Assembly: GCA_029258515.1 (NCBI GenBank)
Contig: JARHYK010000002.1
Span: 167,216 to 231,215, forward strand
DNA from: Clostridia bacterium
GTDB taxonomy: Bacteria; Bacillota; Clostridia; TANB77; CAG-508
Direction: 5' to 3'
DNA: 64,000 nt
The position numbers and the translations under genes were made by a program. Positions within the stretch are counted from its first letter, which is position 1; every line of letters starts with the position of its first letter. Below the pieces are notes generated by a model that worked only from the letters and a program-made list of their open reading frames with translations, was not told the origin of the DNA and ran no database searches. Shown here one piece after another: positions 1,466 through 59,303 of the stretch.

Positions 1466-1532
1466 TTTTAACTCCTTTTTTAAAGAGGAGAATAGAAGTT
1501 ATATTTTCCTCTTTTTTATATTACGTATTTTA

Positions 1533-2261
1533 TTACATAGAAGATGGGTTTGATAAAATATCTTCTATTATTTCATTTTCATATATTTTTTGATAGATTT
1601 TATTAATGTCATTTGATGTTATTTTTTTACTATATTGTTTATTAGTTTTTATATTTTTAACTTCAATAGAATTAATATTATTAGTATCTAGTACTTTATT
1701 ATTAGGAGATTGAAGTTCATTAGATGTAGAAATATGTAAAAAATTAGAATTAATTGGTTTTGATGGATATTTTTGTATTTCTTGTTCACTAAAATTAGTA
1801 GTTGAGGTATATTCTAAAATAGGTTTTCTACCAAGTTCGATTCTATAATTGCAATTACTATCAGTTACATTTAAATACCAGCAATTAGCAAAATCATTAA
1901 TATCTACTTCAAAACTGTAATTCATAGTATCATTATGAACAATTAAGATAGGGCGAGTTTTATAAAAAAAGTCATATCCATATTGCTTTTTAAAGTTTTC
2001 TATATCTTTGTCAGAGATTTCCCAATAAACAAATAAAGTTGTTGGAGTTTGGGCGAGAAGCTTAATAATAGTTTGATTATATTTATATGGTAAATCATAA
2101 TATTCAACAACTTCTATTTTTTTCTTTTTTACAGTAGGACTTTTTTTAGTAGATAAAGTTTTAGATGTTTTTTTATTTTTTGTTATTTTAGTACTTATTA
2201 GTTTTTTTGATTTTATTTCCTCTTTTTTATTGTATTTTTGTTCTTTAGTTTTCTCTGACAT
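1533..2261 (-). CDS. DUF4912-like protein, commonly paired with GH57 glycogen genes
   Basis: 242 aa ORF with a GGAGG RBS. Lys-rich N-terminus followed by a conserved C-terminal domain (LFVYWEISDKDIENF). Sits directly upstream of the GH57 gene on the same strand. Confidence 0.55.
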   Translation of the reverse strand: MSEKTKEQKYNKKEEIKSKKLISTKITKNKKTSKTLSTKKSPTVKKKKIEVVEYYDLPYKYNQTIIKLLAQTPTTLFVYWEISDKDIENFKKQYGYDFFYKTRPILIVHNDTMNYSFEVDINDFANCWYLNVTDSNCNYRIELGRKPILEYTSTTNFSEQEIQKYPSKPINSNFLHISTSNELQSPNNKVLDTNNINSIEVKNIKTNKQYSKKITSNDINKIYQKIYENEIIEDILSNPSSM

Positions 2262-2800
2262 AATAATCCTCCTATGTATAATTTTTCTTAATATATCTTA
2301 TACTAAAAACTAAATTAATTCAAGTAATTTTAATAATAAATTTTTAAAAAATCTGAAAGGAAAATTATTAAAATGTAAATATATAGTAGAACAGTTAAAA
2401 ATAAGTTTTATAATAATGTTTTGATAGATTTAGATAATTTTTAAATATTATTTAAAATGAAATATTTATAGATGTATGATATGATAAAGATGGGATTTTT
2501 TCCACGTAAATGTGGAAAAAAAGATGTTGATATTTTAAAAATGAAAATATATAATTTATATAAAATAATTGTAATATATAGTATAGAAAGACAAAGGTAA
2601 ATACAAATGAATAAGGATTTTTTAGAAGTATATAAAAATAGGATTATAAATAATTTTAAATATGGGAAAATAGATAAAAAGATGTATAATAGTAGCAATA
2701 ATGAGCTATGCTAATTTTAGTGTGGTTTATTATTGGTATTTTTGATTTAATTGAACTTAATACATAAATAGTATAAATAAGAAATAGGAGAAATTTTAAG

Positions 2801-4715: not shown

Positions 4716-4790
4716 AGGGGTATAGTGTCAATGGTAGCACATCGGTCTCCAAAACCGCCTGTGAGGGTTCGAATCCTTCTACCCCTGCCA
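4716..4790 (+). tRNA. tRNA-Trp (anticodon CCA)
   Basis: A cloverleaf can be folded by hand. Acceptor stem AGGGGTA/TACCCCT, anticodon loop CTCCAAA, T-loop TTCGAAT and a 3' CCA. Confidence 0.85.
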
Positions 4791-4799
4791 TATATATTT

Positions 4800-4995
4800 G
4801 CAATGAAGAAGAAAAAATGTGGTTTGTTATTTTTTAGAGAGCAAGTGATGGTGAAATACTTGTAAATAATACACATGGGGAGCTTTGGAGCAATTTAAAA
4901 TTAAGGTGCCTAATTTTTTTAGGAAATAGGGTGGAAACGCGGAAATTAACTTTCGTCCCTAGCTTTTAGTAGCTAGGTGCGAAAGTTTTTTATAT
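4800..4995 (+). promoter_or_regulatory. T-box riboswitch leader of glyQS
   Basis: Conserved T-box sequence AATAGGGTGGAAACGCGG at about 4925-4942. It is followed by a terminator hairpin, TCGTCCCTAGC...GCTAGGTGCGAAAG plus a T-run, ending about 35 nt before the glyQS RBS. Confidence 0.6.
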
Positions 4996-5021
4996 ATTTA
5001 TATTTTAAGGAGGAATTGTTT

Positions 5022-6404
5022 ATGTTAAAATCAATGGATCAAATAGTAAATTTATGTAAAAGCAGAGGATATATTTATCCAGGTTCAGAAATTTATGGAG
5101 GATTAGCTAATTCATGGGATTATGGACCACTAGGAGTTGAATTAAAAAATAATATAAAGAGAGCTTGGAGAAAAAAATTCATACAAGAAAAACAAAATGT
5201 AGTAGGATTAGATGCAGCAATATTAATGAATCCAGAAACATGGGTAGCATCAGGACATGTTGGTGGATTTTCAGATCCTTTAATAGATTGTAAAGAATGT
5301 AAAACAAGACACAGAGCAGATAAATTAATAGAAGAATGGGCACATGAACACGGAAAAGATATGGTAGCAGATGGAATGTCAGATGAAGAATTAATAAATT
5401 TTATTAATGAAAATAAAATAGCTTGTCCAAACTGTGGTAAAACTAATTTTACAGATGTAAGAAAATTTAATTTAATGTATAAAACATATCAAGGAGTGAC
5501 AGAAGATACAACATCAGAAATCTTTTTAAGACCAGAAACAGCACAAGGAATATTTGTAAATTATAAAAATGTAATGAGAACAACTAGAAAAAAATTACCA
5601 GTAGGAATAGGGCAAATAGGAAAAGCGTTTAGAAATGAAATAACACCAGGAAACTTTATTTTCAGAACACGTGAATTTGAACAAATGGAATTAGAATTTT
5701 TCTGTAAGCCAGGAACAGATTTAGAATGGTATGAATATTGGAAAGAATTTTGTAAGAATTGGTTATTAAATTTAGGAATGAAAGAAGAAAATATTAGATT
5801 AAGAGAACATACTCAAGAAGAATTAGTATTTTATAGTAAAGGAACAACAGATATAGAATATAAATTTCCATTTGGTTGGGGTGAGTTATGGGGAATAGCA
5901 GATAGAACAGACTATGACTTAAAACAACACATGGAACATTCAAAACAAGATTTGACATATCAAGATATAGAAAATAAAGAAAAATATATACCATATGTAA
6001 TAGAACCATCAGTAGGAGCAGATAGAGTATTGTTAGCGTTTTTATGTAATAGTTATGAAGAAGAAGAAATTGACAAAGGAGATACAAGAACAGTATTACA
6101 TCTTCATCCAGCATTAGCACCATTTAAAGCAGCAGTATTACCATTGTCTAAGAAATTATCAGAAAAAGCGAATGAAGTATATGAAAAATTATCAAAAGAC
6201 TTTATGTGTGATTATGATGAAGCTGGAAGTATAGGAAAAAGATATAGAAGAGAAGATGAAATAGGAACACCATATTCAATAACAGTTGATTTTGATACAT
6301 TAGAGGATGATACAGTAACTATAAGAGACCGTGATACTATGGAACAAGTAAGAGTTAAAATACATGAATTAAATGACTGGTTAAGTGAAAAAATCAAGTT
6401 TTAA
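5022..6404 (+). CDS. glyQS: glycine--tRNA ligase (alpha2 type)
   Basis: Strong class II GlyRS homology ([21 protein letters not shown]...). GGAGG RBS 9 nt upstream of the ATG at 5022. Confidence 0.9.
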
Positions 6405-11028: not shown

Positions 11029-11820
11029 ATGGAGACATTTGCACAATATATATTAAATGAAAAAGCCTTGGGGTCTAAAATGGAAATAGTATATTATTTA
11101 GCTAAAAAGGAGAAAATATTTTTTGATAAATCTGTTATATTTAAAACAGAACTTTTAAGAATGTTTTTAAATAATTTGGAGTTAGGATTAGATAAAAATA
11201 TATTGTTAACTGCAAATTTATTAGCAAGTTGTAAAAAAATAGAAGTATCTGATGATTTAGAAAAAATTAAAGCTTTTTCAAAAGTAGGAGCAGAATATTT
11301 ATATAGTATAGGATTTGATGAGAAATTTTGTAAAATATGTGAAGGGATAAATAGATATACAAAGCAAGAAAAGAGGGAAAAAGAGAGCGATGTTTTAGAA
11401 TTAATTGATCAATTTGGTGGAATGATATTAGATAGACCAGAAAGAATAGGAATGAAGCCAGATGAAGCTTTAGTTATATTAGAACATAGAAATTTAAAAG
11501 GTCAATTTAATAGATATTTACAATCGTTTATTGATTTTATAAATGAGATAGAACAAATAACTATAAAACAAGATAGGGAAAGAACACCTATTGAATTATT
11601 GTTAAAACTATATAAAGAAACAGCTAATGAGAAAAGATATATTACAGCTGTTATTTACGAATATGAGCAGTTGGTTGATGAAGCTTTTTGTAAGGCAAGA
11701 GAGGGAAAAAATTGTGAAATTAGAAAAAATATGCTAGAATTAGAAAAAGGAAATCCAAATAGGTCATTATTTAGTGAAGAAACAACACAAAAAATAATAG
11801 GAAAATTGATAGAGAAGTAG
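11029..11820 (+). CDS. hypothetical protein
   Basis: 263 aa ORF tightly spaced before the EndoQ-like gene. No family recognised. Confidence 0.4.
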   Translation: METFAQYILNEKALGSKMEIVYYLAKKEKIFFDKSVIFKTELLRMFLNNLELGLDKNILLTANLLASCKKIEVSDDLEKIKAFSKVGAEYLYSIGFDEKFCKICEGINRYTKQEKREKESDVLELIDQFGGMILDRPERIGMKPDEALVILEHRNLKGQFNRYLQSFIDFINEIEQITIKQDRERTPIELLLKLYKETANEKRYITAVIYEYEQLVDEAFCKAREGKNCEIRKNMLELEKGNPNRSLFSEETTQKIIGKLIEK

Positions 11821-11837
11821 AGAAGGAAGGTAGATAA

Positions 11838-13025
11838 ATGTACGAAATATTTGCAGATTTACATGTTCACATTGGGAGGTCAGAAAGTGGTAAACCAATT
11901 AAAATAACTGCCGCTAGATCTTTGAATTTTGCGAATATAGCAAAGGAATGTGAAGCTAGAAAAGGAATACAAGTTGTAGGAGTTATTGATTGTGCGTCAC
12001 CATATGTAATAGAAGATATCGAAAAATTTTTAAGTAATGGCGATGCTTATGAGCTAAAAGATGGTGGAATAATATATAAAGATAAGGTTTGTATATTATT
12101 GGGAAGTGAAGTAGAAACATCAGAAAAAGGAAGAAATGGAAAGAGTGGTAGTGCTCACAATATTTGTTTTTTTCCGTATTTGGAAGATATAAAAGGTTTT
12201 TCAAAAGAGATGAGTACACATATAAAAAACATAACATTAAGTACTCAAAGGTCAAATGTTTCTGGATATGAATTAATAGATATAGTAGAAAAATATAATG
12301 GTATTTTGATTCCAGCACATGTTTTTACACCACATAAGAGTTATTATGGAAATTGTGTAGATAGTTTAAAAGAAATTTTCAGGGAAAAATATGATAAAGT
12401 ATTTGCAATAGAATTAGGATTAAGTTCAGATACTATGTTAGCAGATATGATATCAGAATTGGAAAATAAGACATTTTTGACAAATTCTGATGCTCATTCT
12501 CTTCCTAAAATTGCAAGAGAATATACTAAGATGTTAGTAGAAGATATATCATTTAAAGAAGTTGTAAAAGCTTTAAAAAATGAAGATGGAAGAAGAATTA
12601 TTGCTAATTATGGGTTAGATCCAAAACTTGGAAAATATCATAGGACATATTGTGATAATTGTGAAAAAACTATAGAAACTAAAGAACCAGTTAATAAATG
12701 TCCTTATTGTGGAAGTGAAAAGGTTACTTTTGGTGTTTTTGATAGGATAGAATTAATAAAAGATAAAAAAGAAAGTAAAAGTCCTAAAGATAGACCACAA
12801 TATATTTATCAAGTACCACTTGGATTTATTCCAGGTGTAGGAGGAAAAACTATTGAAAAATTATTAGATACTTTTGAAACCGAAATGAATATTTTACATA
12901 AGCTTTCAAAAGATGATATTGAAGCTGTGGTTGGAGAAAAAATTGCAAATAAGATTGATGAAGCAAGAAGAGGTAAATCAAAAGTTCATTCTGGTGGTGG
13001 AGGAAACTACGGAAAAATAGAATAG
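11838..13025 (+). CDS. PHP-domain protein, endonuclease Q-like (TIGR00375 family)
   Basis: N-terminal ADLHVHIGRS metal-binding motif of PHP domains. C-terminal zinc finger CDNCEK...CPYCG as in EndoQ. Confidence 0.5.
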   Translation: MYEIFADLHVHIGRSESGKPIKITAARSLNFANIAKECEARKGIQVVGVIDCASPYVIEDIEKFLSNGDAYELKDGGIIYKDKVCILLGSEVETSEKGRNGKSGSAHNICFFPYLEDIKGFSKEMSTHIKNITLSTQRSNVSGYELIDIVEKYNGILIPAHVFTPHKSYYGNCVDSLKEIFREKYDKVFAIELGLSSDTMLADMISELENKTFLTNSDAHSLPKIAREYTKMLVEDISFKEVVKALKNEDGRRIIANYGLDPKLGKYHRTYCDNCEKTIETKEPVNKCPYCGSEKVTFGVFDRIELIKDKKESKSPKDRPQYIYQVPLGFIPGVGGKTIEKLLDTFETEMNILHKLSKDDIEAVVGEKIANKIDEARRGKSKVHSGGGGNYGKIE

Positions 13026-13138
13026 AAAGATTAAGAAAATTTTAAATAATAAATATTTTATTGTTTATAGTAATAAAAAACTTCTTATTGAATACACATT
13101 AGGTAGAATATATGTGTAAATAAGGAGTTTTTTGTTTT

Positions 13139-13777
13139 ATGAAAGAAGTCAAAAGAAATAGATATTTAGAGATACTAAAAGATTATGTGATAAATAATTA
13201 TAAGGAATATTTAATAATAGTTATATTTTTTATTTTAGGAATATTTTTAGGTGTATTCTTTGTTAATAATATTGATGAGGAAAAAAGAATAGAGATTCAT
13301 AATTATTTAAGTAGTTTTATAACTGATTTTAAAAATATTGAGAATTTAGATTTAATGGATATTTTAAAAATAAGTATTAAAGATAAAATTGGGCTAACAT
13401 TAGGAATATGGTTTTTTGCAACTACAATTATAGGAATACCAATAGTGTTTGGGATAGTTGCACATAGAGGGTTTTGCCTAGGATATACGATATCTTCTAT
13501 TATTTCACTTATGGGATTTAATAAAGGATTTTTGTTTATTATAATATCTTTGGTAGGGCAAAATATAATATTTATACCAATATTAATATCGTTGGCTGTA
13601 AGTGGTTTTAAATTTTATAAAGCTATTTTAAAAGATAAGAGAAGAGAAAATATTAAAGTAGAATTTATAAGACATACGGTGTTTTCTATAGTTATGTTTA
13701 TAATTTTATGTTTATCAGCAATAATTGAAACATTTATATCTACAAATTTAATAAAAAGTTTTATAACGCATTTTTAG
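13139..13777 (+). CDS. spoIIM: stage II sporulation protein M-like membrane protein
   Basis: 212 aa polytopic membrane protein with SpoIIM-type topology and size, upstream of xerD. Confidence 0.55.
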   Translation: MKEVKRNRYLEILKDYVINNYKEYLIIVIFFILGIFLGVFFVNNIDEEKRIEIHNYLSSFITDFKNIENLDLMDILKISIKDKIGLTLGIWFFATTIIGIPIVFGIVAHRGFCLGYTISSIISLMGFNKGFLFIIISLVGQNIIFIPILISLAVSGFKFYKAILKDKRRENIKVEFIRHTVFSIVMFIILCLSAIIETFISTNLIKSFITHF

Positions 13778-13907: not shown

Positions 13908-14789
13908 ATGGAAAGACAAATTAAACTATTTTTAAAATTTATAGAGACAGAAAAGAAGTTATCTAGTAATACTTTACAATCATACCAAAGAGATTTAAAA
14001 CAATTTGAGGATTATATAAATGATAATAAGGTGCTTTATACTCATGTACATGAAAAACATATTAAAAATTACATTGAGGAATTAGAAAAGGAAGGAAAAA
14101 AACCATCTACAATATCAAGAAATATAGCATCAATCCGTTCATTTTATTTATTTTTAGTAAGAAAATCAAAAGTAAAAGAAGATCCAACTGCAAATATTCA
14201 ATCACCTAAGATTGAAAAAAGAGTACCAAGTGTTTTAACTTCAAAAGAAGTAGAATTATTATTAGAACAACCTAAAACAGAAGATTTAAAAGGAATAAGA
14301 GATAAGGCAATGTTAGAATTTGCTTATGCGACAGGAATGAGAGTAACAGAAATTATTTCATTAAATATAGAAGATGCACATATAGATGAAAGTTATGTAG
14401 TTTGTAAAAATGGAAATAAACAAAGAACTATACCTCTAGGAAAATTAGCTCAAAAGGCATTAAAAGAATATATTGAAAAGTCAAGAAATATATTAATTAA
14501 AAATGATAAAGAACAAGCTTTATTTGTTAATATAAATGGAAGAAGATTAACAAGACAAGGTTTCTGGAAGATTATTAAATATTATAAAGAACAAGCTCAT
14601 ATTGAAAAAGATATAACACCACATGTATTAAGACATTCATTTGCAACACATTTATTGAAAAATGGAGCAGATTTAAAATCAATTCAAGTTATGCTTGGAC
14701 ATTCTGATATATCATCAACACAAGTTTATATGCAATTTCAAGATGATGGAATAAAAGATATTTATAAAAAAGCGCATCCACGTGCTTAA
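13908..14789 (+). CDS. xerD: site-specific tyrosine recombinase XerD
   Basis: Phage-integrase-family catalytic region with the conserved R...HxxR...Y pattern (LRHSFATHLL, HSDISSTQVY). The N-terminal SAM-like domain is typical of XerC/D. Confidence 0.8.
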   Translation: MERQIKLFLKFIETEKKLSSNTLQSYQRDLKQFEDYINDNKVLYTHVHEKHIKNYIEELEKEGKKPSTISRNIASIRSFYLFLVRKSKVKEDPTANIQSPKIEKRVPSVLTSKEVELLLEQPKTEDLKGIRDKAMLEFAYATGMRVTEIISLNIEDAHIDESYVVCKNGNKQRTIPLGKLAQKALKEYIEKSRNILIKNDKEQALFVNINGRRLTRQGFWKIIKYYKEQAHIEKDITPHVLRHSFATHLLKNGADLKSIQVMLGHSDISSTQVYMQFQDDGIKDIYKKAHPRA

Positions 14790-30377: not shown

Positions 30378-30733
30378 ACATAAAAAGATGATATATATTT
30401 TATATTGAATCAAAAAACAAGGTCGATTAGTTTAGGAATAAATGTTGTATTGAACAATGTTTATTCCTTTTAATTTGAAAAAATTATTAAATTTTCAATT
30501 TTAAGAATTGGATTACGTACAAAAGATTGCTTTTGTATTAAAAGTTAAAAATCAAATTTTAATTAATTTACACAAGAGAACTATTGAAAATTAAAAGTTA
30601 TAAATATGGATATAAGTGCACATAATGTTGATGGAAATCTGAAAAATAAAAAATTAGTTAAAATTGTTGTGTTAAAGTTAAAAATATTGTAAAATACGTT
30701 TATAAGGATAGAAAGCTAAGGAGGAATTTTAAA

Positions 30734-32233
30734 GTGAAAAAATCTAAAGAAAGAAACACAAATGGTATTACTTTAATTGCATTAGTAATTACAATAATAG
30801 TTTTATTAATCTTAGCAGGTGTAACAATAGCAAGTTTAAGTGGAGAAAATGGGATACTTCAAAAAGCAAGTGAAGCAAAGGAAAAAACTAATAAAGAAGA
30901 TGCAGAAGAATCAATAAAATTACTAGTAACAGAAGTTCAAATGGAGAAAAATCTAGGAACAAAACCATTAAAAGATTTGTTAGAAGAAAAATTTGGACAA
31001 AGTAATGTAAAGCCAAATGGAGATGGATTTAAAGTAATAAAAGATGGTTATGAAGCAACAATTGATGCTAATGGCAATTTAGTAGGAGAAGTGGAAAAAG
31101 TAGGAACAGGGGGAGAAATACCAACAACTGGTAAAACAGATGGAAGTTGGGATGAAACAAAAGGTGTAAATGTACCTAAACTAAAAGATAATATGAAATT
31201 AGTAATATATAGTAATGGAAATTGGGTAGAAGATACAACAAATTCAGCTTATAAATATGTTGCAGGAACAGGGAATGAAGATAATAATTCAAGTGAATGG
31301 GCAAATGCTGTTTTAGATGGAAATTATTATGTATGGATACCAAGGTATGCGTATAAAATAGATAATAGTGTAACATATACAAGTCAGGCAGGTACGAGTC
31401 ATAAAATAGATGTTAAATTTGTTGACACTAGTGTAAAAGGAACAACAAGTGATGGGTATATAGTACATCCCGCATTTACATTTGGAACAGAAGAGCTAAG
31501 TGGAATATGGGTAGGAAAATACGAAACGTCAGGTGATATTGCAAAACCAACAATAAAACCTGATCAAGTAGCATTAACAGATATTAATGTTGCAACGATG
31601 TTTGGAACAGCTAAAAAATTAAGTAAAATAAATATAGATGCTCATATGATGAAAAATACAGAATGGGGAGCAGTAGCATATTTGACACAAAGTTCATATG
31701 GGAGAAATGGAACAGAAGTAAGTGTGAATCAGTGTAGTAATTATATAACAGGTGCAGGGAGAGGAATTGGTAATCCAATAGATAATCCAATTTATAATGG
31801 AATATATTCAAATCCAGAACTTAATCAAAAATATAATGGAGCAATAGGACGATTATCAAGTACAACAGGAAATGTATATGGGGTATATGATATGTCTGGA
31901 GGAACAGTTGAATATGTGATGGGAGTATATGGGACAGATAAAAATAATATAAGTTTTAGGTATTCTGGTTTTGATATCAATTCTTTTCCAAAAGAAGAAA
32001 AATATTATGATTTGTATACTAAAACAAGTACAGATATAACTAATATTGGTGATAGTTTGTTTGAAACATCTGGTTGGAATAATGATAATAAATCTTTTTT
32101 TAATCTCGACTTTCCTTTTTCTAGACGTGGTGGTCGTTATAATTCTTCTAGTGATGCCGGTATTTTTTATCATAATCCTTACAATGGTGCCAATGATAGT
32201 TCGTACGGTTTTCGAGTGTGTCTTTCAGTATGA
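30734..32233 (+). CDS. type IV prepilin-like N-terminus fused to an FGE-sulfatase/C-type-lectin-fold domain protein (paralog of 2801..4354); candidate DGR target
   Basis: GTG start with an AAGGAGG RBS. Leader MKKSKERNTNG followed by ITLIALVITIIVLLILAGV. The FGE motifs are conserved. The divergent C-terminal 36 codons are A-depleted and Asn/Ser/Tyr/Asp/Gly-rich. Confidence 0.75.
   Translation: MKKSKERNTNGITLIALVITIIVLLILAGVTIASLSGENGILQKASEAKEKTNKEDAEESIKLLVTEVQMEKNLGTKPLKDLLEEKFGQSNVKPNGDGFKVIKDGYEATIDANGNLVGEVEKVGTGGEIPTTGKTDGSWDETKGVNVPKLKDNMKLVIYSNGNWVEDTTNSAYKYVAGTGNEDNNSSEWANAVLDGNYYVWIPRYAYKIDNSVTYTSQAGTSHKIDVKFVDTSVKGTTSDGYIVHPAFTFGTEELSGIWVGKYETSGDIAKPTIKPDQVALTDINVATMFGTAKKLSKINIDAHMMKNTEWGAVAYLTQSSYGRNGTEVSVNQCSNYITGAGRGIGNPIDNPIYNGIYSNPELNQKYNGAIGRLSSTTGNVYGVYDMSGGTVEYVMGVYGTDKNNISFRYSGFDINSFPKEEKYYDLYTKTSTDITNIGDSLFETSGWNNDNKSFFNLDFPFSRRGGRYNSSSDAGIFYHNPYNGANDSSYGFRVCLSV
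30761..31900 (+). repeat. dispersed repeat copy B (paralogous to 2828..4010)
   Basis: By-eye alignment with copy A. Contains a 6-codon indel (PIPPTT vs PTT) and scattered substitutions. Confidence 0.8.
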
Positions 32234-39160: not shown

Positions 39161-39249
39161 TGGTGCAGATGGCCGGAATCGAACCGGCACGAGGTTTAAC
39201 CCTCGCAGGATTTTAAGTCCTGTGCGTCTACCTGTTCCGCCACATCTGC
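39161..39249 (-). tRNA. tRNA-Leu (anticodon TAA), long variable arm
   Basis: The reverse complement folds as a class II tRNA. Acceptor stem GCAGATG/CATCTGC, anticodon loop CTTAAAA, T-loop TTCGATT and CCA end. Confidence 0.85.
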
Positions 39250-41183: not shown

Positions 41184-42110
41184 ATGGGTAAGTATCAAAA
41201 TTTTTATGCCATAGAAACTTTGAATGATGTTGAAAAAAGAAATAAAAAAAATAAAATATTAATAATATTTTTGTTGCTTGTTATTTTTAGTATTTTGTTA
41301 TTTTTAATAGTAAATGTAAATAGCAATATTAAAAAGTTAAAGCAAGCTAAGGAATATGAAAAACAAGTATTAGAGTTTAAGGAAAAATATGAAAAAGAAG
41401 AATTAAGAAAAAAACAAGAAGAAGAACAAAAAAAACAAGCTAGATTACCTAGAATAACAGAACAGGGAAAAGAAAATTTCAGAACGATTTTTCATTCTGA
41501 TAAAAAACGAGCATTTTTAACATTTGATGATGGACCATCTACTGTAACACATAAAATATTAGATACATTGGATGAAAAAGGAGTAAAAGCAACATTTTTC
41601 ATATTGGGAGTAAATGCTGAGAAAAACAAAGAATTAGTAAATCAAATGTATGAAAAAGGGCACTATATTGCAAATCATGGTTATTCACATGTGTATTCAT
41701 CAATATATTCAAGCCCACAAGCAGTTTTAGATGAGTATAATAAAACAAATGATATAATAAAAGAAGCTATTAAACAACCAGAATTTAATTCATATTTATT
41801 TAGATTTCCAGGTGGATTTTATGGTGGAAAATATGCAAATATTAAAAAAGAAGCAAATGAAATGTTAAAGCAAAATGATATTTCTAATATTGATTGGAAT
41901 TGTTTAACTGGTGATTCTGAAACAAGTAGTCCTACGCCAGAATATGTTATAAAAAGATTAAAAGAAACGTCTAAAGGAAAAAATAGTTTAGTAGTATTGA
42001 TGCATGATGCACAAGCTAAAAAAGTTACAGCAGAGATGCTACCACAAATTATAGATTATCTAAGTAGTGAAGGATATGAATTTAAGACATTTTATGATAT
42101 ATTTATATGA
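41184..42110 (+). CDS. polysaccharide deacetylase (NodB-homology) with an N-terminal TM anchor and coiled coil
   Basis: NodB motifs FLTFDDGP and ANHGYSH. Confidence 0.75.
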   Translation: MGKYQNFYAIETLNDVEKRNKKNKILIIFLLLVIFSILLFLIVNVNSNIKKLKQAKEYEKQVLEFKEKYEKEELRKKQEEEQKKQARLPRITEQGKENFRTIFHSDKKRAFLTFDDGPSTVTHKILDTLDEKGVKATFFILGVNAEKNKELVNQMYEKGHYIANHGYSHVYSSIYSSPQAVLDEYNKTNDIIKEAIKQPEFNSYLFRFPGGFYGGKYANIKKEANEMLKQNDISNIDWNCLTGDSETSSPTPEYVIKRLKETSKGKNSLVVLMHDAQAKKVTAEMLPQIIDYLSSEGYEFKTFYDIFI

Positions 42111-44467
42111 GTTATAAAATAAAATGTTTTGATTTTTGTAATTTATTTTCAATAAAGAAAGGAGCAATAAAATTGCCTAGAAAGAAGAAGACAAATTTTG
42201 AACCAGAGATAGAAGAAAACTTAAAATACATAGGATTAGATTTAGAAAAGTTACCTCAAAATATTATTGATTTTGAACCATTAAAATTTAGGCCTACAAA
42301 AACATATGACGAGAAAAAATATATACAATATAGATTTGTATCTATTCAGGATATTCAAATATTAATTTCACCAACAAATAGGTTAGAAGAATTAGAAGAA
42401 AAATATAAAAAAGCAAGACCGTTAGTAGATTATATGGATAACAAAAAAGAAGATAATTTGTTGAGATTTACAGTGTTTTTGAATATGATCAAACAAATGG
42501 ATATTGCTGAAATAGAAAAAGTAGAAGAAGAACAAAAAAAACTTGCTCAAAAACTTCCTTTTAATGTTAAATATGAAGGTAATTATTTATGGCAAATTTA
42601 TTATTCAGAGATAAGTGATAAATATTTTATGCTTGTTCCTATGGAAGAAACAAATTATTCAGCGTTTTTCTATTTATTAAAGAAGAAAATTGAAAATAAT
42701 AAAAATGATAAGATATTTGTACCTGTTTGTAATATTGGATATTCAAGAGAATTTTTTACAAAGACAGAATATAAAGATATAGAAGATTATTTATGGTTAT
42801 TTACTAAAAATTGGACATCTATTTATGAGGTGTATGATGAAAATAATAAACTTTCAGTTAATATAGTTGGAGAAACTGCAATTTATAATAATATAAAAAG
42901 TAAATATAAAATAAATATAAATAATCAAAAAGAAGCAAATCATTTTTATAAACTTTTAAAGGCATTATTTATTTTGCAAACAGAATTACCAAATTATTAT
43001 AAGTTTGATACAAATGTAGATGAGAAGGGTAATTTGCAATTTTATTTTAGAGATACACAAATTGAATATTCTAAAATGGCATCATTTATTAAAGAAGAAT
43101 TTTCTCAAGGAGAGATTTTAGAAATAGACATCTTAAAGAAAATAGAAAATGCTGATAAGAGATTAGAAGAATTAAAGCAAATAGCCTCTATGCAAGAAAT
43201 TGAATATAGAGATAAAGAAAAGCAAATATCAACTTTTTTAGAGTGTAAGAAAACATTTTTTGGGAAAGTTAAGTATTATTTTAAAATTAGTAAAAAAAAT
43301 AAAAAGAAGAAAAATCAAGAAGAGTTTGAAGAAAAAACAGTACAAGAGGATAGTTGTGAATTTTATAATGAAGAGAATGTACCTAAAGCTTTGAATTCAA
43401 AAAATCACACAATAGAAGAGCTAATAGAAAAATATAAAAATATTGATAATCAAGAGAATTTGTTAAAAAACATGGTTATGGATATAAATGCAATTAAATT
43501 AAAAAATAAAAATATGGCTAAAAAGATTGAAAATGCAACACTTTTTATAGAAGAAATTGATAATCATAAAAGAAGTATTTTTGAATTTTGGAAATATAGT
43601 AATAAAGATGCTATTAGTGTATTACCAGAAGGAGAAGAAGAAGAAATAGGAGTTGTTAAGAAAAAAATCGAAAAAGCTTTTGATTTTGAAGAAGATTTTG
43701 AAAAGTTTGGAATAAAATTAGATAATTTGCAAAGAGAAAAATTATCAATAGATGAAACAGATAGTATATATATTGCAACAACTAATATGTTAGATCTTTT
43801 GAATAAAATTCTTCTAAATGAAGTTGGACCTAAAGATGTTGAAAATGAATTAAAAAATTTAAAAAAAGAGTTGAAAGAAAAACAAGTGATTGAAACAGAT
43901 GAAGAATTTGATATCTTTGGAAGTTTAATTGAAGATAGTAGGAAGATAAAGAAAATAGGAAATAAGATACATAGAGAAATATCAAAAGACAAGTTTGATA
44001 TTCTTGAAATTACAAAAATGACTAGACAAATAGGGTTTAAGCTATCTTTGGAACAAGTTATTAAAAATATTAAAAATTCATTGGATAAGGTAAAATCTCC
44101 AGATGATTTAACTATCTATAAAGCAATTGTAGATGATAAGTTAGATGAAAATAAGATTAATGTTTTTGATATTAATTCTGAAAATGAAATGAAAAAAGCG
44201 TGCAAAAAAGAAGGAAATATGATTAATTTATATAAGATTAATTTAAAACGAGGTGAAAATATTTTAGGTTTTACAAATATAATTTATTATGATAATCAAA
44301 ATGATACTTTGCCTGCTGGAATGGATTTATCTACAAATGTTATAGTAGATATTTCAAAAATTGATTTGAATATTAAAAAGAAGAAAACTTTCCAAATTGC
44401 ATGTTTAGAAGATGAAAAAGATGAATTTTCTGATGTGATAGTTAAAAAAGTAACTGTTTATGAATAA
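42107..44467 (+). CDS. large hypothetical protein (786 aa, Lys/Glu-rich, coiled-coil-like), translationally coupled to the deacetylase
   Basis: ATGA start/stop overlap with the upstream gene. No signal peptide. No recognisable domain. Confidence 0.5.
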   Translation: MSYKIKCFDFCNLFSIKKGAIKLPRKKKTNFEPEIEENLKYIGLDLEKLPQNIIDFEPLKFRPTKTYDEKKYIQYRFVSIQDIQILISPTNRLEELEEKYKKARPLVDYMDNKKEDNLLRFTVFLNMIKQMDIAEIEKVEEEQKKLAQKLPFNVKYEGNYLWQIYYSEISDKYFMLVPMEETNYSAFFYLLKKKIENNKNDKIFVPVCNIGYSREFFTKTEYKDIEDYLWLFTKNWTSIYEVYDENNKLSVNIVGETAIYNNIKSKYKININNQKEANHFYKLLKALFILQTELPNYYKFDTNVDEKGNLQFYFRDTQIEYSKMASFIKEEFSQGEILEIDILKKIENADKRLEELKQIASMQEIEYRDKEKQISTFLECKKTFFGKVKYYFKISKKNKKKKNQEEFEEKTVQEDSCEFYNEENVPKALNSKNHTIEELIEKYKNIDNQENLLKNMVMDINAIKLKNKNMAKKIENATLFIEEIDNHKRSIFEFWKYSNKDAISVLPEGEEEEIGVVKKKIEKAFDFEEDFEKFGIKLDNLQREKLSIDETDSIYIATTNMLDLLNKILLNEVGPKDVENELKNLKKELKEKQVIETDEEFDIFGSLIEDSRKIKKIGNKIHREISKDKFDILEITKMTRQIGFKLSLEQVIKNIKNSLDKVKSPDDLTIYKAIVDDKLDENKINVFDINSENEMKKACKKEGNMINLYKINLKRGENILGFTNIIYYDNQNDTLPAGMDLSTNVIVDISKIDLNIKKKKTFQIACLEDEKDEFSDVIVKKVTVYE

Positions 44468-45051: not shown

Positions 45052-45411
45052 TGGTGGAGATGAGGAGAGTCGAACTCCTGTCCATAACACATTCCATATA
45101 AATTTCTACAAGTTTAGTTTATTATTTATCCTTTTTTTTATATCTTCAACAAACAGAATATATAAAACGAAAGCTCTTTTAAATACCTACTATATTAAGA
45201 GCAAATATAGTTTTGTTTCCTACATAAATGACACTTTAGCCTAAAGCGTAGGGACTTATAGGTAAAGCGTAGCTACAACTTAGGCAGCTAGTGCAAATTC
45301 TCTATTATTATCTGCATTTATATTTAAATTTCCCGTTTTTTAAAGTGGCCAACGAGAATCCACTACTTGCTATTTATACTTCTTGTGTAATGTCGAAACC
45401 ATTACATCCCC
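45052..45411 (-). ncRNA. ssrA: tmRNA (SsrA)
   Basis: 5' GGGGATGTAATGGTTTCGAC pairs with the 3' tRNA-like end GGACAGGAGTTCGACTCTCCTCATCTCCACCA. An internal tag reading frame GCA GAT AAT AAT AGA GAA TTT GCA CTA GCT GCC TAA (ADNNREFALAA) lies at 45315..45280. Confidence 0.8.
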
Positions 45412-54894: not shown

Positions 54895-55977
54895 ATGAAA
54901 AAAATATTATTAGCCACATATTCTTTAGATATTGGTGGAATAGAAAAAGCATTTATTTCTTTAGTGAATAGTTTAAAAGAAGAATATGATATAACAATTG
55001 TATTAGAAAAAAAACAAGGGATATTTCTAAATGAAATAGATAAAAAAATTAATGTAATTGAATATAGCCCAGCAAGTGATAAGAATGTACTTGTTAGAAA
55101 ATTAAAAAATATTTGTAAAAGAATTAAATTTATACTTAAATATAAAAATAGATTTGATTTTTCGGCAAGTTTTGCAACATATTCAAAGTCGTGTTCATTT
55201 GTAGCAAGGATTGCATCAAAAAATTGTTGTTTGTGGGGACATGCTGATTATTTAACTTTATTTGATGGTGAGGAAGAAAAAGTAAAGGGATTTTTTGAAG
55301 ATGTTAAGTATGATAAATTTAAAAATATTGTTTTTGTTTCTAATGAAGGTAAAAATAGTTTTTTGCAAGTTTTTCCTAAAATGAATGAAAAAGTTAGTGT
55401 TTGTAATAATTTGATAGAGTATAAGAAAATCAAAGAAAAAGCAAATGAAAAAATAGAAATGAATAAAAATAAATGTGTTACATTTTTGAATGTAGGTAGA
55501 CATGATGAAAGGCAAAAGAAATTAACAAGACTAATTGAAGCAGCAAGTATGTTAAAAAAAGATGGATATGATTTTGAAATTTTACTTGTGGGAGATGGAA
55601 AAGATAGTAGCTTATATAAAGAAAAAGTAAAACAATTGAATTTAGAAAAAAATATTATATTTTTGGGTAAAAAACAAAATCCATATCCATATTTTAAAAT
55701 GGCAGATTGTATAATTTTAACTTCAGATTATGAAGGATATCCAGTTGTATTTTTGGAAAGTTTTATTTTGGAAAGACCAATTATAACAACTAAAGTTTCA
55801 GATTATAAAGAAGTTCAAGAAAAATATGGTTTAGTAACTGAAAAAACAGTTGACGATATATATGCTAAAATGAAAGAATTTATTGAAAAAGGATTTGAAA
55901 TTAAAGGAAAATTTGATGGAGAAGAATATAATAGAAAAATTATTACGAAGATTAAAGATTTAATTGAAAGGAAATAA
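54895..55977 (+). CDS. glycosyltransferase family 4 (GT-B)
   Basis: GT1/GT4 fold. Conserved E...E region near the C-terminus (YEGYPVVFLESFILERP). Confidence 0.75.
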   Translation: MKKILLATYSLDIGGIEKAFISLVNSLKEEYDITIVLEKKQGIFLNEIDKKINVIEYSPASDKNVLVRKLKNICKRIKFILKYKNRFDFSASFATYSKSCSFVARIASKNCCLWGHADYLTLFDGEEEKVKGFFEDVKYDKFKNIVFVSNEGKNSFLQVFPKMNEKVSVCNNLIEYKKIKEKANEKIEMNKNKCVTFLNVGRHDERQKKLTRLIEAASMLKKDGYDFEILLVGDGKDSSLYKEKVKQLNLEKNIIFLGKKQNPYPYFKMADCIILTSDYEGYPVVFLESFILERPIITTKVSDYKEVQEKYGLVTEKTVDDIYAKMKEFIEKGFEIKGKFDGEEYNRKIITKIKDLIERK

Positions 55978-55981
55978 AACT

Positions 55982-56932
55982 ATGGAAATATTAAGTGTTA
56001 TTATTCCGGTATATAATGCAGAAAAAGAAATTAAAAAATGTTTAGATTCTGTTATTAAACAAAGTGGTTTGGAAAATGTGGAGATAATTGTAATTAATGA
56101 TGGATCTTGTGATAAATCAGAAGAAGTAATATTTAAATATATAGAAGAACATAAAAATTGCAACATAAAATATTACGCCAAAGAAAATGAAGGAATTGCA
56201 AAAACTAGAAATTTTGGGATTCAAAAGGCAACAGGTAAATATATAATGTTTATAGATGCAGATGATTATATAAAAAAGGATACTTTTCAAAAATTAAGTA
56301 AATATTTAGAAGAGGATATTGATTTAATAAAATTTAAATTACAAAGAGTGGATGAAAATGGAAATGTATTGGAAAAGGTAGATGGTCCTGTGTTTGAAAA
56401 AATATCAGGAGAAGAGGCTTTTAATAGGTTATATTATACAGATTTATTACTTGACTCACCTTGTTTATACATTATTAAAAAAGAAATATTTACAAATAAT
56501 AATTTTTTATTTCAAAGAACATATCATGAGGATTTTGGATTAATTCCTCTTGTTATTTTAGCTAGTGACAAAGTAGTTTCAACACCATATTATTTTTATC
56601 AATATGTACAAGTACCAAATAGTATAACTAGAAATGAGAGTTATGAAAAAACTATTAAAAAGATGCAAGATGTTTTAGCTCATTATGATAATATGATAAA
56701 TGTTATAGAAAAAATGGATATAACAAAAGAAACAAAAGAAAATATTAAGATATATTATACAAATGCTATAATATTGAAATTGAATGAACTAGAAAAAAAA
56801 GAGCAGAAGTTTTTTATTAAAGAAATTAGAAAAAGAAAGATGGAAAAAAATATAAAAGTAAGAAACTTAAAGCAGTTAATAAAAAGAATAATTTTAAAAA
56901 TAGATATTAAATTATATTTGAAAATGAGGTGA
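55982..56932 (+). CDS. glycosyltransferase family 2
   Basis: LSVIIPVYNAEK...INDGSCD and DADD motifs. Confidence 0.75.
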   Translation: MEILSVIIPVYNAEKEIKKCLDSVIKQSGLENVEIIVINDGSCDKSEEVIFKYIEEHKNCNIKYYAKENEGIAKTRNFGIQKATGKYIMFIDADDYIKKDTFQKLSKYLEEDIDLIKFKLQRVDENGNVLEKVDGPVFEKISGEEAFNRLYYTDLLLDSPCLYIIKKEIFTNNNFLFQRTYHEDFGLIPLVILASDKVVSTPYYFYQYVQVPNSITRNESYEKTIKKMQDVLAHYDNMINVIEKMDITKETKENIKIYYTNAIILKLNELEKKEQKFFIKEIRKRKMEKNIKVRNLKQLIKRIILKIDIKLYLKMR

Positions 56933-56937
56933 GAAGT

Positions 56938-57897
56938 ATGCCAAAAGTAAGTGTTATTGTTCCAGTATATAATGTGGAAAAATATATAGAAAAATGTTTA
57001 GATACATTAGTAAATCAAACTTTAGAAGATATAGAAATAATAATTGTAAATGATGGATCAAAGGATAATTCTAAAAAAATAATAGAAAAATATATTGAGA
57101 AATATCCTAGAAAAATAAAGTATTTAGATAAAGAAAATGGAGGATTGTCAGATGCTAGAAATTATGGAATGCCATATGCAAAAGGTGAATATATTGCATT
57201 TTTAGATTCAGATGACTATGTGGAATTAGATATGTATGAAAAAATGTATGAATTGGCTAAAAAAGAAGATTCAGATATGGTAGAATGTGATTTTTATTGG
57301 GAATATGAAGATAAAATTAGAGAAGATATTGGTGCTATATATAGTAATAAAAAGGAAATGTTAGAAAAAATAAGAGTTGTTGCTTGGAATAAATTAATAA
57401 AAAGAGAAATTATTGAAAAATCAAAAATAGAATTTCCTAAAGGGTATAGATATGAGGATGTTGAATTTACTTATAAATTAATTCCATATTTAGATAAGTT
57501 TTCTTTTTTAAAAAAATCATGTGTTCATTATATACAAAGAGCTAATTCAATATCAAATGTACAAAATGAAAGAACAAAAGAAATATTAGATGTGTTAGAC
57601 AATGTACTAGAGTATTATAAAGAAAATGGACTATATGAAGAATATAAAATGGAACTTGAATATATATATACTAGATATTTACTTTGTAGTTCGCTTCTAC
57701 GAATGGTAAAAATTGAAAATAAGGATTCTAGAAAAAAAATATTAAAAGAAACATGGAATAATCTAAATACTAAATTCCCTAACTGGAAGAAAAATGAAAT
57801 ATTAATAAATAATAATTGCAAAAAAAATATATATATGAGAACTGTAAACAAAGTTACATATAGAATTTATTGTGGAATATTTAGGAGAATAAAATGA
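56938..57897 (+). CDS. glycosyltransferase family 2
   Basis: VSVIVPVYNVEK...VNDGSKD and DSDD motifs. The start overlaps the upstream gene's end. Confidence 0.75.
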   Translation: MPKVSVIVPVYNVEKYIEKCLDTLVNQTLEDIEIIIVNDGSKDNSKKIIEKYIEKYPRKIKYLDKENGGLSDARNYGMPYAKGEYIAFLDSDDYVELDMYEKMYELAKKEDSDMVECDFYWEYEDKIREDIGAIYSNKKEMLEKIRVVAWNKLIKREIIEKSKIEFPKGYRYEDVEFTYKLIPYLDKFSFLKKSCVHYIQRANSISNVQNERTKEILDVLDNVLEYYKENGLYEEYKMELEYIYTRYLLCSSLLRMVKIENKDSRKKILKETWNNLNTKFPNWKKNEILINNNCKKNIYMRTVNKVTYRIYCGIFRRIK

Positions 57898-59303
57898 AAA
57901 AAATAAATGCAGAAAAAATATTAAGCTTGTTTATTATACTTTGTCCAATATTGGATAGTTTGAGTTTTATTTTTAGAAATAGTTTAAGTGTTAATTTTTC
58001 ACCATCAACTATTGTAAGAACATTAATACCAATAGTGTTACTTATATATTTATTTTTTAAAAATGATAAAAAATTCAAAAAAAATATATTACTTATAGGG
58101 GGAACATATTTAATATATGGAATTATACATTTGATTTTATTTCAAAGTGCTGTAACAAAATCAAGTTATAGTAATATAGTTCATGAGGCACAATATATAG
58201 TAAATTATACATTTATGATAATAAATTTAATAAATTTCCTTTATATATTTGCTAAACAAAAAGATTGTTTTGAAAAATTATCAAAAAGTATTTTGATATC
58301 AAATATGATCTATATAGTATTAATATATATTTCTATATTTACTAAAACATCTTCAAGTACATATATTGAGGGGATGGGGTATAAAGGATGGTTTGAATCT
58401 GGAAATAGTTTAGGAACTATATTGATACTATCGCTATTTATTATAATTTTATATATAAAAGATCAAAAAAATATAAAAATAGTTATTCCTTTTATTGTAT
58501 TTGAGGGTATATTTTTAACAATGTTACTAGGAACAAGAGTAGGGTTAATAGGGTTTATATTTGTTTTAGTAGTATTTTTCTTAGTAGAATTAATATATAG
58601 TTTCTTGAAAAATAAGAAAAGTTTTAAGAAGATTTTTGTAGCGTCAATAGTAACAGTATCAACCGTAATATTAGTTATAATGGCAATTGGTTCTACAACT
58701 ATTCAAAGAAGAAAACATTTACATGATATTGAAAAGAATATATTTGATGAGAATAAAAACGAGCAGGCACATATCACAGGTAGTTTGATGGAAATAAAAG
58801 AGAAAATTGATAGTGGGGTTTTAGAAGAAGGATATATGAATAAGCCACAGCAAAAATCAATTTTGGAGTTATATAATATTGCAAATAGAGTTAATACAAG
58901 AAATAATGATCAAAGAATGCAACAGTTAATATATAATATGTTACTTGTCAAAAATCAAAATAATTTTGGATATATATTGTTTGGAAATGGCTATGTAGCT
59001 AATTTTAGGGAACTAGTGTTAGAAATGGAGATACCAGCATTTATATTTAACTTTGGAATTTATGGATTTATATTATATTTTATGCCATTTTTATTGATTT
59101 GGTTTTATGGATTATATATTGGAATTAAAAATATAAAGAAGATAGATAGTAAATATGTTATCTTAGAAATTGCATGTGGTTTTGTATTTTTATTATCATT
59201 TTTTGCGGGATATACTTTTTTTAATTCTTCTAGTATGATAATAATAGTTACAATAAATACAATGCTTGTCAATAAAATTTACTTGTTAAAAAAAGGAGAA
59301 TAG
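57894..59303 (+). CDS. O-antigen ligase/polymerase (Wzy-like) family membrane protein
   Basis: 469 aa with at least ten predicted TM helices and a large periplasmic-type loop. Embedded in the GT operon. Confidence 0.55.
   Translation: MKKINAEKILSLFIILCPILDSLSFIFRNSLSVNFSPSTIVRTLIPIVLLIYLFFKNDKKFKKNILLIGGTYLIYGIIHLILFQSAVTKSSYSNIVHEAQYIVNYTFMIINLINFLYIFAKQKDCFEKLSKSILISNMIYIVLIYISIFTKTSSSTYIEGMGYKGWFESGNSLGTILILSLFIIILYIKDQKNIKIVIPFIVFEGIFLTMLLGTRVGLIGFIFVLVVFFLVELIYSFLKNKKSFKKIFVASIVTVSTVILVIMAIGSTTIQRRKHLHDIEKNIFDENKNEQAHITGSLMEIKEKIDSGVLEEGYMNKPQQKSILELYNIANRVNTRNNDQRMQQLIYNMLLVKNQNNFGYILFGNGYVANFRELVLEMEIPAFIFNFGIYGFILYFMPFLLIWFYGLYIGIKNIKKIDSKYVILEIACGFVFLLSFFAGYTFFNSSSMIIIVTINTMLVNKIYLLKKGE

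Follow-up and report, generated by a model that had tools for sequence, protein, structure and literature searches.

The window, a stretch of 64,000 nt of DNA from a Clostridia bacterium, carries two paralogous genes, here called A and B, which like all their parts described below lie on the + strand. According to the ORF list, gene A (2801-4354) encodes a protein of 517 aa with a pilin-like N-terminus, a helical and beta-rich middle part and a predicted C-terminal FGE/C-type-lectin-like domain, the tail of which resembles the variable region (VR) of a DGR target. Gene B (30734-32233), which has a GTG start, encodes its paralog of 499 aa. Their start codons lie 27,933 nt from each other, in line with the 27.9 kb or so of the original prediction. 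The genes are 74% identical over their full length and are each other's best match, the next homolog being at 56%, and they account for the sole long repeat within the window (2786-4040 versus 30719-31937, 87.8% over 1267 nt in blastn); the second repeat found by blastn is a tandem gene pair unrelated to A and B, and there are no further repeats. The leaders, codons 1-8 (MEKIKIKK in A, 2801-2824; MKKSKERN in B, 30734-30757), differ at five of the seven residues after the first. Upstream of the genes the similarity is limited to the ribosome-binding site (AGGAGnAATTTTAA), and the flanks are unrelated, which bears out the expectation that each copy has its own leader and promoter. Promoter and terminator scans at both loci stayed at chance level, and an Rfam search gave tRNAs and one tmRNA and nothing else.

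Downstream of the leaders the two genes share a block that covers the 5' 60% or so of the gene and is probably a gene-conversion tract. In the codon-level alignment it extends over codons 9-269 (2825-3607 in A, 30758-31531 in B) and consists of 774 aligned nt with 33 substitutions (95.7% nt identity, dS 0.12, dN 0.024), which confirms the near-identity over about 780 nt noted earlier. In addition there is one 9-nt indel, an insertion of CCA ATA CCA (P-I-P) found only in A (3188-3196). The block had been thought to begin precisely at the NGITLIAL codons; the start is indeed sharp and lies 3 nt further upstream, at codon 9 (ACA AAT GGT, T-N-G; 2825 in A and 30758 in B), and the end is at alignment codon 268-269 (3604-3607 in A, 31528-31531 in B). 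The window seems to come from a draft assembly, on a contig of 246.5 kb, and a repeat that was collapsed or made chimeric when the metagenome was assembled could give such a pattern, but the copies sit in unique flanks and are told apart by the 33 substitutions and the indel. Moreover, positions 1-2854 of the window are reproduced at 100% identity by an independent assembly in Logan (SRR14857245), which stops exactly 30 nt inside the shared block. As a graph with k=31 is expected to break at a true repeat, a break k-1 nt into the block indicates that the two-copy repeat is genuine, and we consider an artefact of assembly extremely unlikely.

The N-terminus of both proteins has the layout of a class III signal, a short basic leader that ends in Gly and is followed by about 20 hydrophobic residues (MEKIKIKKTNG and then ITLIALVITIIVLLILAGV in A, MKKSKERNTNG and then ITLIAL... 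in B). Gly stands at position -1 in 96 of 99 family members, with a median leader of 10 aa, and the AF2 model of B places a helix at residues 10-36, in the N-terminal part that is invariant as a helix across the family. The name pilin was thus apt for the leader and the hydrophobic helix, but not for position +5, which is Ala in A and B and in 93 of the 99 members, Ser in the other six and Glu in none. Nor do the two proteins reach the 21.2-bit cutoff of N_methyl (PF07963), to which they score 11.4 and 12.1 bits; the same profile is found at E <= 0.01 in 12 of 37 relatives, and N-termini of pilins in the PDB were matched only at E = 0.013-1.4. No prepilin peptidase or filament assembly genes were found among the approximately 40 window ORFs scanned or in the 8-11 kb flanks.

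Singly, A and B stayed below the Pfam thresholds and matched nothing at E <= 0.01 in Pfam or NCBIfam and nothing in the PDB (phmmer), and family-level profiles were needed for an assignment. PF03781 was matched by 24 of 37 family members (best E = 2.4e-5), and the family profile matched 5vf4 in the PDB, the DGR variable protein TaqVP (E = 4e-6). The same structure was the sole significant Foldseek match in the PDB (E = 8e-5, probability 1.0, TM-score 0.35-0.44) for the AF2 model of B, which is of moderate confidence (pLDDT 69.6, pTM 0.64). The similarity of the family to PF03781 is remote, and its nearest structural relative, 5vf4, is a non-enzymatic DGR variable protein. The label FGE given earlier is upheld by these matches, in that the C-terminal domain is predicted to have an FGE/C-type-lectin-like fold of the kind found in DGR targets. 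Judged by sequence, A and B are stand-alone members of a very large gut-Firmicute family (at least 8000 clusters at 90% identity) of FGE/C-lectin-type, DGR-associated proteins, a family left almost unannotated in public sources.

Synonymous divergence between A and B is 5-10 times greater outside the shared block than inside it: dS rises from 0.12 over codons 9-269 to 0.65 in the remainder, and to 1.33 if only the final 100 codons are taken (p = 1e-10 in a Fisher test on the synonymous counts). The maximum chi-square method, a form of the recombination test that had been proposed for this pair, put a breakpoint at codon 266-268 with all sites as well as with synonymous sites only, and none of 500 permutations reached the observed value. 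The trees of the two parts are incongruent. In the N-terminal block A and B form a cherry in 200/200 bootstraps (numpy NJ) at a distance of 0.044, the next relative being at about 0.55, and they are 96% identical in aa compared to about 60% for the next homolog. Over the C-terminal 250 residues they are only 56-59% identical, which ranks 33rd-47th among 233 homologs; B is 63-68% identical to the group P0003-P0010, and the A-B distance in this part (0.50) exceeds the distances to outside homologs (0.41-0.45). The C-terminal halves still form a weak NJ cherry (about 55% of bootstraps), so that they could be sisters of deep origin and not separate lineages. Sharp edges, low divergence that includes the synonymous sites, and incongruent trees for tract and remainder are the marks of a gene-conversion tract, and gene conversion, one of the two options in the original prediction, fits both the synonymous heterogeneity and the tree incongruence.

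Two other accounts of the near-identical block can be weighed against these data. The N-terminal helix does not vary within the family, and stronger purifying and codon-level constraint might keep the block similar with no recombination at all. In the family, however, the N-terminal block is no better conserved than the C-terminal one (about 60% versus 63-68% to the nearest outside homologs), and the synonymous sites are homogenised too, with a synonymous-codon difference between A and B of 0.08 compared to 0.29 to an outgroup; this comparison refutes constraint, to which we give next to no credence. The other option of the original prediction was that the whole gene had recently been duplicated and that its C-terminus then diverged at a faster pace under diversifying selection, DGR mutagenesis or both. 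The mutual best full-length match of A and B (74%, next 56%) speaks for it. Yet in the segments outside the block the difference between A and B equals that to the outgroup, at synonymous codons too, so that the 3' 40% of the two genes are as far from each other as either is from homologs in other organisms, and neither the leader and promoter nor the flanks were duplicated along with the gene. The genome is AT-rich and codon-biased, and the synonymous difference saturates low in it (about 0.29 even to the outgroup gene, which is 55% identical), so absolute ages are unreliable.

The region after the shared block and the C-terminus had been described as divergent, which is correct as far as it goes but overlooks two re-conserved stretches. 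The first divergent island (3608-3715 in A, 31532-31612 in B, with a length difference of 27 nt) is about 40% identical in aa, and its version in A resembles the homologs P0080 and P0046, that in B P0041 and P0026. It is followed by a first re-conserved block (3716-3862 in A, 31613-31759 in B; about 91% nt identity), then by a second island (3863-3928 in A, 31760-31825 in B), in which A and B have no BLAST match to each other and each match different family members, and by a second re-conserved block (3929-4039 in A, 31826-31936 in B; about 85% nt identity). In the first of these blocks the synonymous-codon difference between A and B (5/40) is not significantly below those to the outgroup (8/39 and 11/41), and the block is either a second small conversion patch or a product of strong constraint. 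In the second it amounts to 0.30, at or above the outgroup values (0.24, 0.14), which indicates that constraint and not conversion has kept this block. The islands have dN/dS of at least 1, as would be expected after a whole-gene duplication with diversifying selection. Selection for diversity, as had been proposed, nevertheless cannot account for raised synonymous divergence and indels over approximately 750 nt, of which a DGR rewrites only about 150 nt.

The last part of each gene, the tail (4202-4351 in A, 32081-32230 in B), is homologous to a verified DGR VR and depleted of adenine. The homolog P0012, which is 54% identical to B, is the target of a canonical DGR at its locus (L001), where the VR (11399-11548) and the template repeat (TR; 11697-11846, 150 nt) have 24 mismatches, 22 of them at TR adenines, and are accompanied by bAvd (12033-12401) and RT (12386-13408); the tail of A aligns to this VR and TR. 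The adenine fraction is 0.18 in the tail of A compared to 0.44 in the gene body, and 0.19 compared to 0.43 in B, and synonymous codons ending in A make up 0.22 versus 0.75 in A (p = 1e-7) and 0.17 versus 0.68 in B (p = 1e-6). Together with third-position A of 0.15 and 0.10 in the tails of A and B, the adenine fractions equal the values of the verified VR (0.18/0.17), the controls being at 0.47/0.52, and no such depletion was seen at the 3' ends of 19 control genes. The tail codons are adenine-poor and NNY-rich, as the codons of a VR are. Homology and composition thus point to a link of A and B with DGRs. The depletion was also considered as a marker that would separate cassette-adjacent from orphan targets and was rejected, as a target lacking a cassette (L087) is still third-position depleted.

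The DGR signature of the tails could be taken as support for divergence by mutagenesis after a whole-gene duplication, but the differences between the tails are not those that adenine mutagenesis leaves. The tails differ at 53 of 123 positions, spread over the codon positions as 20/14/19, compared to 11/11/2 for the adenine mutagenesis at L001, and the indels and the divergence reach about 600 nt upstream of the VR of approximately 150 nt, to which DGR rewriting is limited. We therefore regard a recent whole-gene duplication as very improbable. Moreover, 28 of the 53 differing positions have no adenine in either copy, so the two tails cannot share one template; a single TR for both would have to consist of adenine to 52% or more, with adenine at 19 of 41 third-codon positions.

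These numbers lead us to reject the idea that A and B are two remote targets of a single DGR, and the search for its machinery points the same way. An adenine-tolerant sliding scan and a degenerate 93-nt IUPAC pattern (<= 3 mismatches) recovered only the two tails and no template repeat in the window, and no template-compatible sequence was present in the flanks of 8-11 kb beyond it (L082, L083). Neither RT nor Avd was detected in the window, where tblastn with the Avd and RT of a relative gave noise and the YxDD motif was also searched for, or among the genes called 8-11 kb beyond each window end, and none of the best 120 RT homologs lies on the source contig of 246,528 bp. Four RT candidates for this genome (P0307, P0336, P0346 and P0340) were rejected as belonging to other MAGs. 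Targets and cassettes are also found apart in relatives, as MSL-bAvd-RT cassettes without an adjacent target (L084, L086, L090) and as targets without a cassette (L087, L088).

The mosaic could also have arisen in another way, if a full copy was recently duplicated or transposed and its 3' 40% was later replaced through homologous recombination with a diverged allele that came from a different strain or species, a head swap by HGT. The family is modular, and in the islands A matches one subset of homologs and B another. In the close strains represented by L001 and L087, homology ceases precisely where the VR starts, with different DNA downstream. A tandem pair in another genome (L077) has the same pattern as A and B, a 5' part that is identical and a 3' part that is divergent, a recurrence that we count in favour of conversion; on the side of duplication stands that this pair shares its promoter together with the 5' part at 100%. 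The pair in the window, however, has no common promoter or leader, which a fresh duplication would normally carry, no mobile-element genes were found flanking either copy, and two events would be needed instead of the one of conversion. With two sequences and no genome of a close relative, conversion of the 5' part of old paralogs is not formally separable from recent duplication with 3' replacement, which we consider unlikely, though less so than the alternatives above.

The explanation that we find probable is that A and B are paralogs of long standing in which gene conversion has homogenised the 5' 60%, while the heads have diverged and carry DGR-type tails from different templates. The two genes would have started as old members of a large gut-Firmicute surface-protein family, with a protein plan of basic leader, pilin-like helix, helical and beta-rich stalk and FGE/C-type-lectin domain, the last 50 codons or so being a DGR-type variable region. 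Codons 9 to about 268, which encode the anchor, the stalk and the opening strands of the lectin domain, would then have been transferred between the copies, in whichever direction, by non-reciprocal homologous recombination. This would have happened about 0.12 synonymous substitutions per site ago, without touching the leaders, the promoters, the flanks and the 3' 40%, which kept their long-standing divergence. The outcome would be two different binding heads, presumably displayed on the cell surface, on a near-identical anchor and stalk. Judging by the adenine-poor tails, adenine-specific DGR retrohoming has shaped each head, either still today or only in the past, and from a different template in each case.

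On this reading the case of A and B is a clear but fairly ordinary one of gene conversion, and its main value lies in the correct annotation of the two genes. It also illustrates how the family may evolve, by exchange or homogenisation of the anchor and stalk module between copies, with binding heads that remain different and are marked by retroelement hypermutation. If a DGR with matching templates is present elsewhere in the genome, the pair would cleanly exemplify the targeting of remote genes through several templates in a commensal that forms spores, and if there is no such DGR, the tails would be relics that could be used to date its loss; neither outcome would alter the current understanding of DGRs or gene conversion. 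More speculatively, A and B could be live in-trans targets of one or more unlinked DGRs with at least two templates. The targeted proteins would be modular, pilin-like adhesins of a gut Firmicute that forms spores, and recurrent conversion would keep anchor and stalk identical so that different hypervariable lectin heads fit the same assembly or anchoring machinery. We hold this to be rather doubtful; if true, it would be a two-tier diversification, by paralog heads and by DGR rewriting, on pilin-like DGR targets of a kind barely mentioned in the searchable literature.

Among known systems, the closest in the C-terminal part are TaqVP of Thermus aquaticus (5vf4) and TvpA of Treponema denticola, in which, as in A and B, a C-terminal FGE/CLec-like domain has its VR in the last 50 codons or so and ends in G-F-R-x-C-L. 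These proteins lack the N-terminal pilin-like anchor and the stalk of A and B. They are DGR-targeted, whereas the DGR role of A and B is putative, TR, Avd and RT being absent from the window and from 8-11 kb on either side. FGE-type proteins make up approximately 19% of DGR targets (PMC5758913), and the DGR of Treponema denticola has seven remote targets (Wu et al. 2018, PMC5758913). A and B resemble such remote targets in that they are target-type genes standing alone among housekeeping genes, at a DUF4912/tRNA-Trp/glyS locus and an ABC-GntR/3HCDH locus, and distant from any cassette. The remote targets of one DGR, however, match a single TR except at adenines, unlike the tails of A and B with their 28 adenine-free differences among 53.

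The homogenised 5' part finds its parallel elsewhere. In Neisseria, the paralogous surface-protein genes pilE/pilS and opa evolve in concert or by partial gene conversion, and they share with A and B a sharp-edged near-identical tract in otherwise diverged paralogs, with the synonymous sites homogenised. In A and B it is instead the constant N-terminal part that is homogenised, and both genes are complete and separately promoted, with no silent-cassette donor and no sign of programmed switching. As to architecture, PilB and PilC of Streptococcus sanguinis are modular type IV pilins onto which a C-terminal functional module has been grafted. The family of A and B departs from them in having Ala or Ser and not Glu at +5, a sub-threshold N_methyl match and no assembly genes in the window, but the plan is alike: a short basic leader up to a Gly, then some 20 hydrophobic residues, and further globular domains with a lectin-like one at the end.

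Genes A (2801-4354, 517-aa ORF) and B (30734-32233, 499-aa ORF with a GTG start) lie in the same orientation on the forward strand and share the only long repeat detected when the window was compared with itself (2786-4040 vs 30719-31937; 87.8% identity over 1267 nt). The second and sole other repeat, near 56-57 kb, is an unrelated tandem pair of adjacent 322-aa glycosyltransferase family 2 paralogs (55964-57897; 73% nt identity between 55992-56269 and 56948-57219), whose setting is a cell-envelope polysaccharide cluster that also holds an O-antigen-ligase-like gene (57894-59303). According to the codon alignment, the identity of A and B is strongly uneven. In the leader (codons 1-8) five of seven residues are unlike, and the upstream DNA can be aligned only at the ribosome-binding site. 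The near-identical N-block follows, from codon 9 to ~268 on the forward strand (A, 2825 to 3604-3607; B, 30758 to 31528-31531), opening with T-N-G-I-T-L-I-A-L and differing by 33 substitutions in 774 nt (95.7% identity) and one 9-nt indel. Beyond it, a divergent island rich in indels precedes the first conserved stretch (A 3716-3862) and a further island precedes the second (A 3929-4039), after which comes the tail, where nucleotide identity is 52-62%. An independent Logan assembly of SRR14857245, a run holding the same organism, matches window 1-2854 at 100% identity and ends exactly 30 nt inside the shared block, a point at which a k=31 graph breaks, and the repeat is thus genuine. The original prediction had described and placed it correctly to within 3 nt.

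That prediction offered a recent duplication or gene conversion as the origin of the repeat, and the synonymous divergence is informative on both. Nei-Gojobori estimates were dS 0.12 and dN 0.024 over codons 9-269, whereas dS was 0.65 in the remainder of the gene and 1.33 in the last ~100 codons (synonymous counts of N-block vs remainder, Fisher p = 1e-10). Scanning for recombination between the copies by maximum chi-square gave a single dominant breakpoint at codon 266-268, with the observed value reached in none of 500 permutations, and the breakpoint persisted with the analysis restricted to synonymous differences at identical-residue codons. Segment-wise BLAST against 233 family members gave the same split: A and B are 96% identical in the N-block, where the next relative is at ~60%, but only 56-59% identical in the C-terminal 250 residues, ranking just 33rd-47th, with B at 63-68% to the P0003-P0010 group of homologs and A at 59-64% to P0011/P0007. 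Neighbour-joining paired A and B in 200/200 bootstraps for the N-block (distance 0.044), whereas for the C-block their distance (0.50) exceeded that to outside homologs (0.41-0.45) and they paired in ~55% of replicates. With the family gene of the fetched locus L001 as outgroup, the synonymous-codon difference in the N-block was 0.08 between A and B vs 0.29 to the outgroup, and in other segments the two values were equal. The stretch 3929-4039 is therefore conserved by constraint, since its synonymous differences match the outgroup level, and 3716-3862 is ambiguous (5/40 between A and B vs 8/39 to the outgroup). A recent whole-gene duplication followed by selection for diversity or DGR mutagenesis cannot produce this pattern, because neither process lifts synonymous divergence or makes indels over ~750 nt, and because a fresh duplication normally brings leader and promoter along, which A and B do not share. 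Conversion, in contrast, fits both the low-dS tract and the contrast between the trees. We are highly confident that A and B are a recombination-generated mosaic of some kind, and the simplest account is probably that they are old paralogs in which codons 9-268 form a conversion tract, which RecA-type non-reciprocal recombination would have copied from one onto the other. Alternatively, a recent copy could have had its 3' part later replaced by a diverged allele, which is the same class of event.

Singly, A and B matched nothing at useful thresholds in Pfam, NCBIfam or PDB, but they are part of a very large family with at least 8000 members (8000/8000 scored candidates were significant), and almost all of 577 relatives in genomes stem from MAGs of gut origin that carry the labels Bacilli, Clostridia, Mollicutes or Erysipelotrichaceae. 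When 37 members were aligned, 24 matched PF03781 (FGE-sulfatase) and 12 matched N_methyl. The family profile matched 5vf4, a Thermus aquaticus DGR variable protein (E = 4e-6), which was also the sole significant Foldseek match of the AlphaFold model of B (E = 8e-5, probability 1.0, TM 0.35-0.44). In the model (pLDDT 69.6, pTM 0.64), a long helix at the N-terminus (residues 10-36) is accompanied by more helices, two regions rich in beta structure and a C-terminal domain. The predicted FGE-type C-terminal domain is thus upheld, and membership in an FGE/C-lectin-type DGR-target family is supported. The "pilin" part of the name stands as a resemblance: a basic leader of ~10 residues, Gly at -1 (96/99 family members) and a hydrophobic helix recall a class III (prepilin) signal, but position +5 is Ala (93/99) or Ser (6/99) and never Glu, the N_methyl scores of 11-12 bits fall below the cutoff of 21.2, and filament machinery genes were not seen in the window. 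Judging from fold and homology, a common N-terminal anchor or stalk would display both proteins on the cell surface with different lectin-type heads. A gene for a germination protease (Peptidase_A25; L082:4917-5855), some 3.6-4.5 kb beyond the left end of the window, along with YtxC and others indicates an endospore-forming Firmicute, in accord with a codon usage that is AT-rich and favours A endings.

The last 150 nt of each gene (A, 4202-4351; B, 32081-32230; forward strand) are homologous to the variable repeat (VR) of a canonical DGR cassette on L001, in which the target gene P0012 (54% identical to B) is followed by the VR (11399-11548), a template repeat (TR; 11697-11846) built of AAC codons, bAvd and a 340-aa reverse transcriptase (RT). 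There, 22 of the 24 positions differing between VR and TR are at template adenines. Adenine makes up 0.18/0.19 of the tails of A/B vs 0.44/0.43 of the gene bodies, and 0.15/0.10 of third codon positions in the tails; the same two measures are 0.18/0.17 in the verified VR and 0.47/0.52 at the 3' ends of 19 other window genes (minima 0.36/0.35). In the tails, 22%/17% of the codons with an A-ending synonym end in A, as against 75%/68% in the bodies (p = 1e-7 and 1e-6), and glycine shifts from mainly GGA to GGT. As amino-acid composition cannot explain this synonymous shift, the tails appear to have once been written from adenine-poor templates, and it is quite likely that DGR retrohoming would in the past have written the last ~50 codons of each head from different templates. 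The suggestion that one DGR serves both genes did not hold: of 53 differences in 123 ungapped nt of tail, 28 lack adenine in either copy, the 53 are spread 20/14/19 over the three codon positions vs 11/11/2 for the L001 VR-TR pair, and a template common to both would have to be at least 52% adenine (L001 TR, 32%). Neither an RT motif nor an Avd or RT match by tblastn was present in the window, and no TR emerged there from an adenine-tolerant scan or from a 93-nt degenerate pattern allowing up to 3 mismatches. All genes called within the adjoining 8-11 kb on each side were housekeeping, and none of the best 120 RT homologs lay on the 246.5-kb source contig. Continued writing through unlinked cassettes seems possible but rather doubtful.

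As for the surroundings, a tRNA-Trp (CCA) gene (4716-4790) lies between gene A, directly upstream, and a glycyl-tRNA synthetase gene (4977-6404); tRNA genes are common insertion sites, and no integrase or repeat was seen beside this one. A XerC/XerD-type tyrosine recombinase gene (13908-14789; Phage_integrase and SAM-like N-terminal domains) has housekeeping neighbours and no prophage genes around it. On the reverse strand are tRNA-Leu (TAA; 39161-39249) and tmRNA (45052-45411; tag ADNNREFALAA). A 786-aa ORF (42107-44467) downstream of a polysaccharide deacetylase gene had no Pfam match at E <= 1e-4.

Elsewhere, RT or Avd was found near a family member at only ~6 of 81 loci (fetched flanks up to 10 kb), and two to five family copies, at times in tandem, were counted in at least 19 of 61 MAGs. 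MutS_I-like (MSL)-bAvd-RT cassettes of known architecture also occur without an adjoining target gene (L084:5127-7116, L086:5206-7095, L090:7233-9095), which suggests frequent remote targeting in these gut MAGs. One of the three adjoins a ribosomal protein operon, and L086 has a TR-like match inside the called MSL ORF. L087 and L001, from two strains, have their chromosomal context (leuS, HD, topA, mfd, target) in common, with 97.5% nt identity as far as the exact first VR base, after which L001 has TR-bAvd-RT and L087 another tail, unrelated genes and no cassette (L001:11399-13408, L087:10001-12977); the cassette and VR thus behave as a replaceable unit. L088 holds a near-identical gene at a different locus, with no cassette. 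In a mouse-gut Clostridia MAG, two family genes in tandem, 2.9 kb apart (L077:1067-5648) are 100% identical over at least 120 nt upstream and ~203 codons and then abruptly 55-75%, on a short 6.5-kb contig where mis-assembly is possible. This mosaic is like that of A and B but sharper, younger and inclusive of the promoter. Family members thus appear habitually to exchange or homogenise their 5' module and to turn over their 3' end.

No paper in the literature searched was found to connect type IV pilin-like proteins of Firmicutes with DGRs, and PMC11661182 gives VRs in pilin-type domains only as scarcely represented. DGR targets that are remote or multiple, FGE-type targets and MSL have already been described (PMC5758913). 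A and B belong to known phenomena, a family of DGR-type variable proteins and, probably, gene conversion over part of two paralogs.
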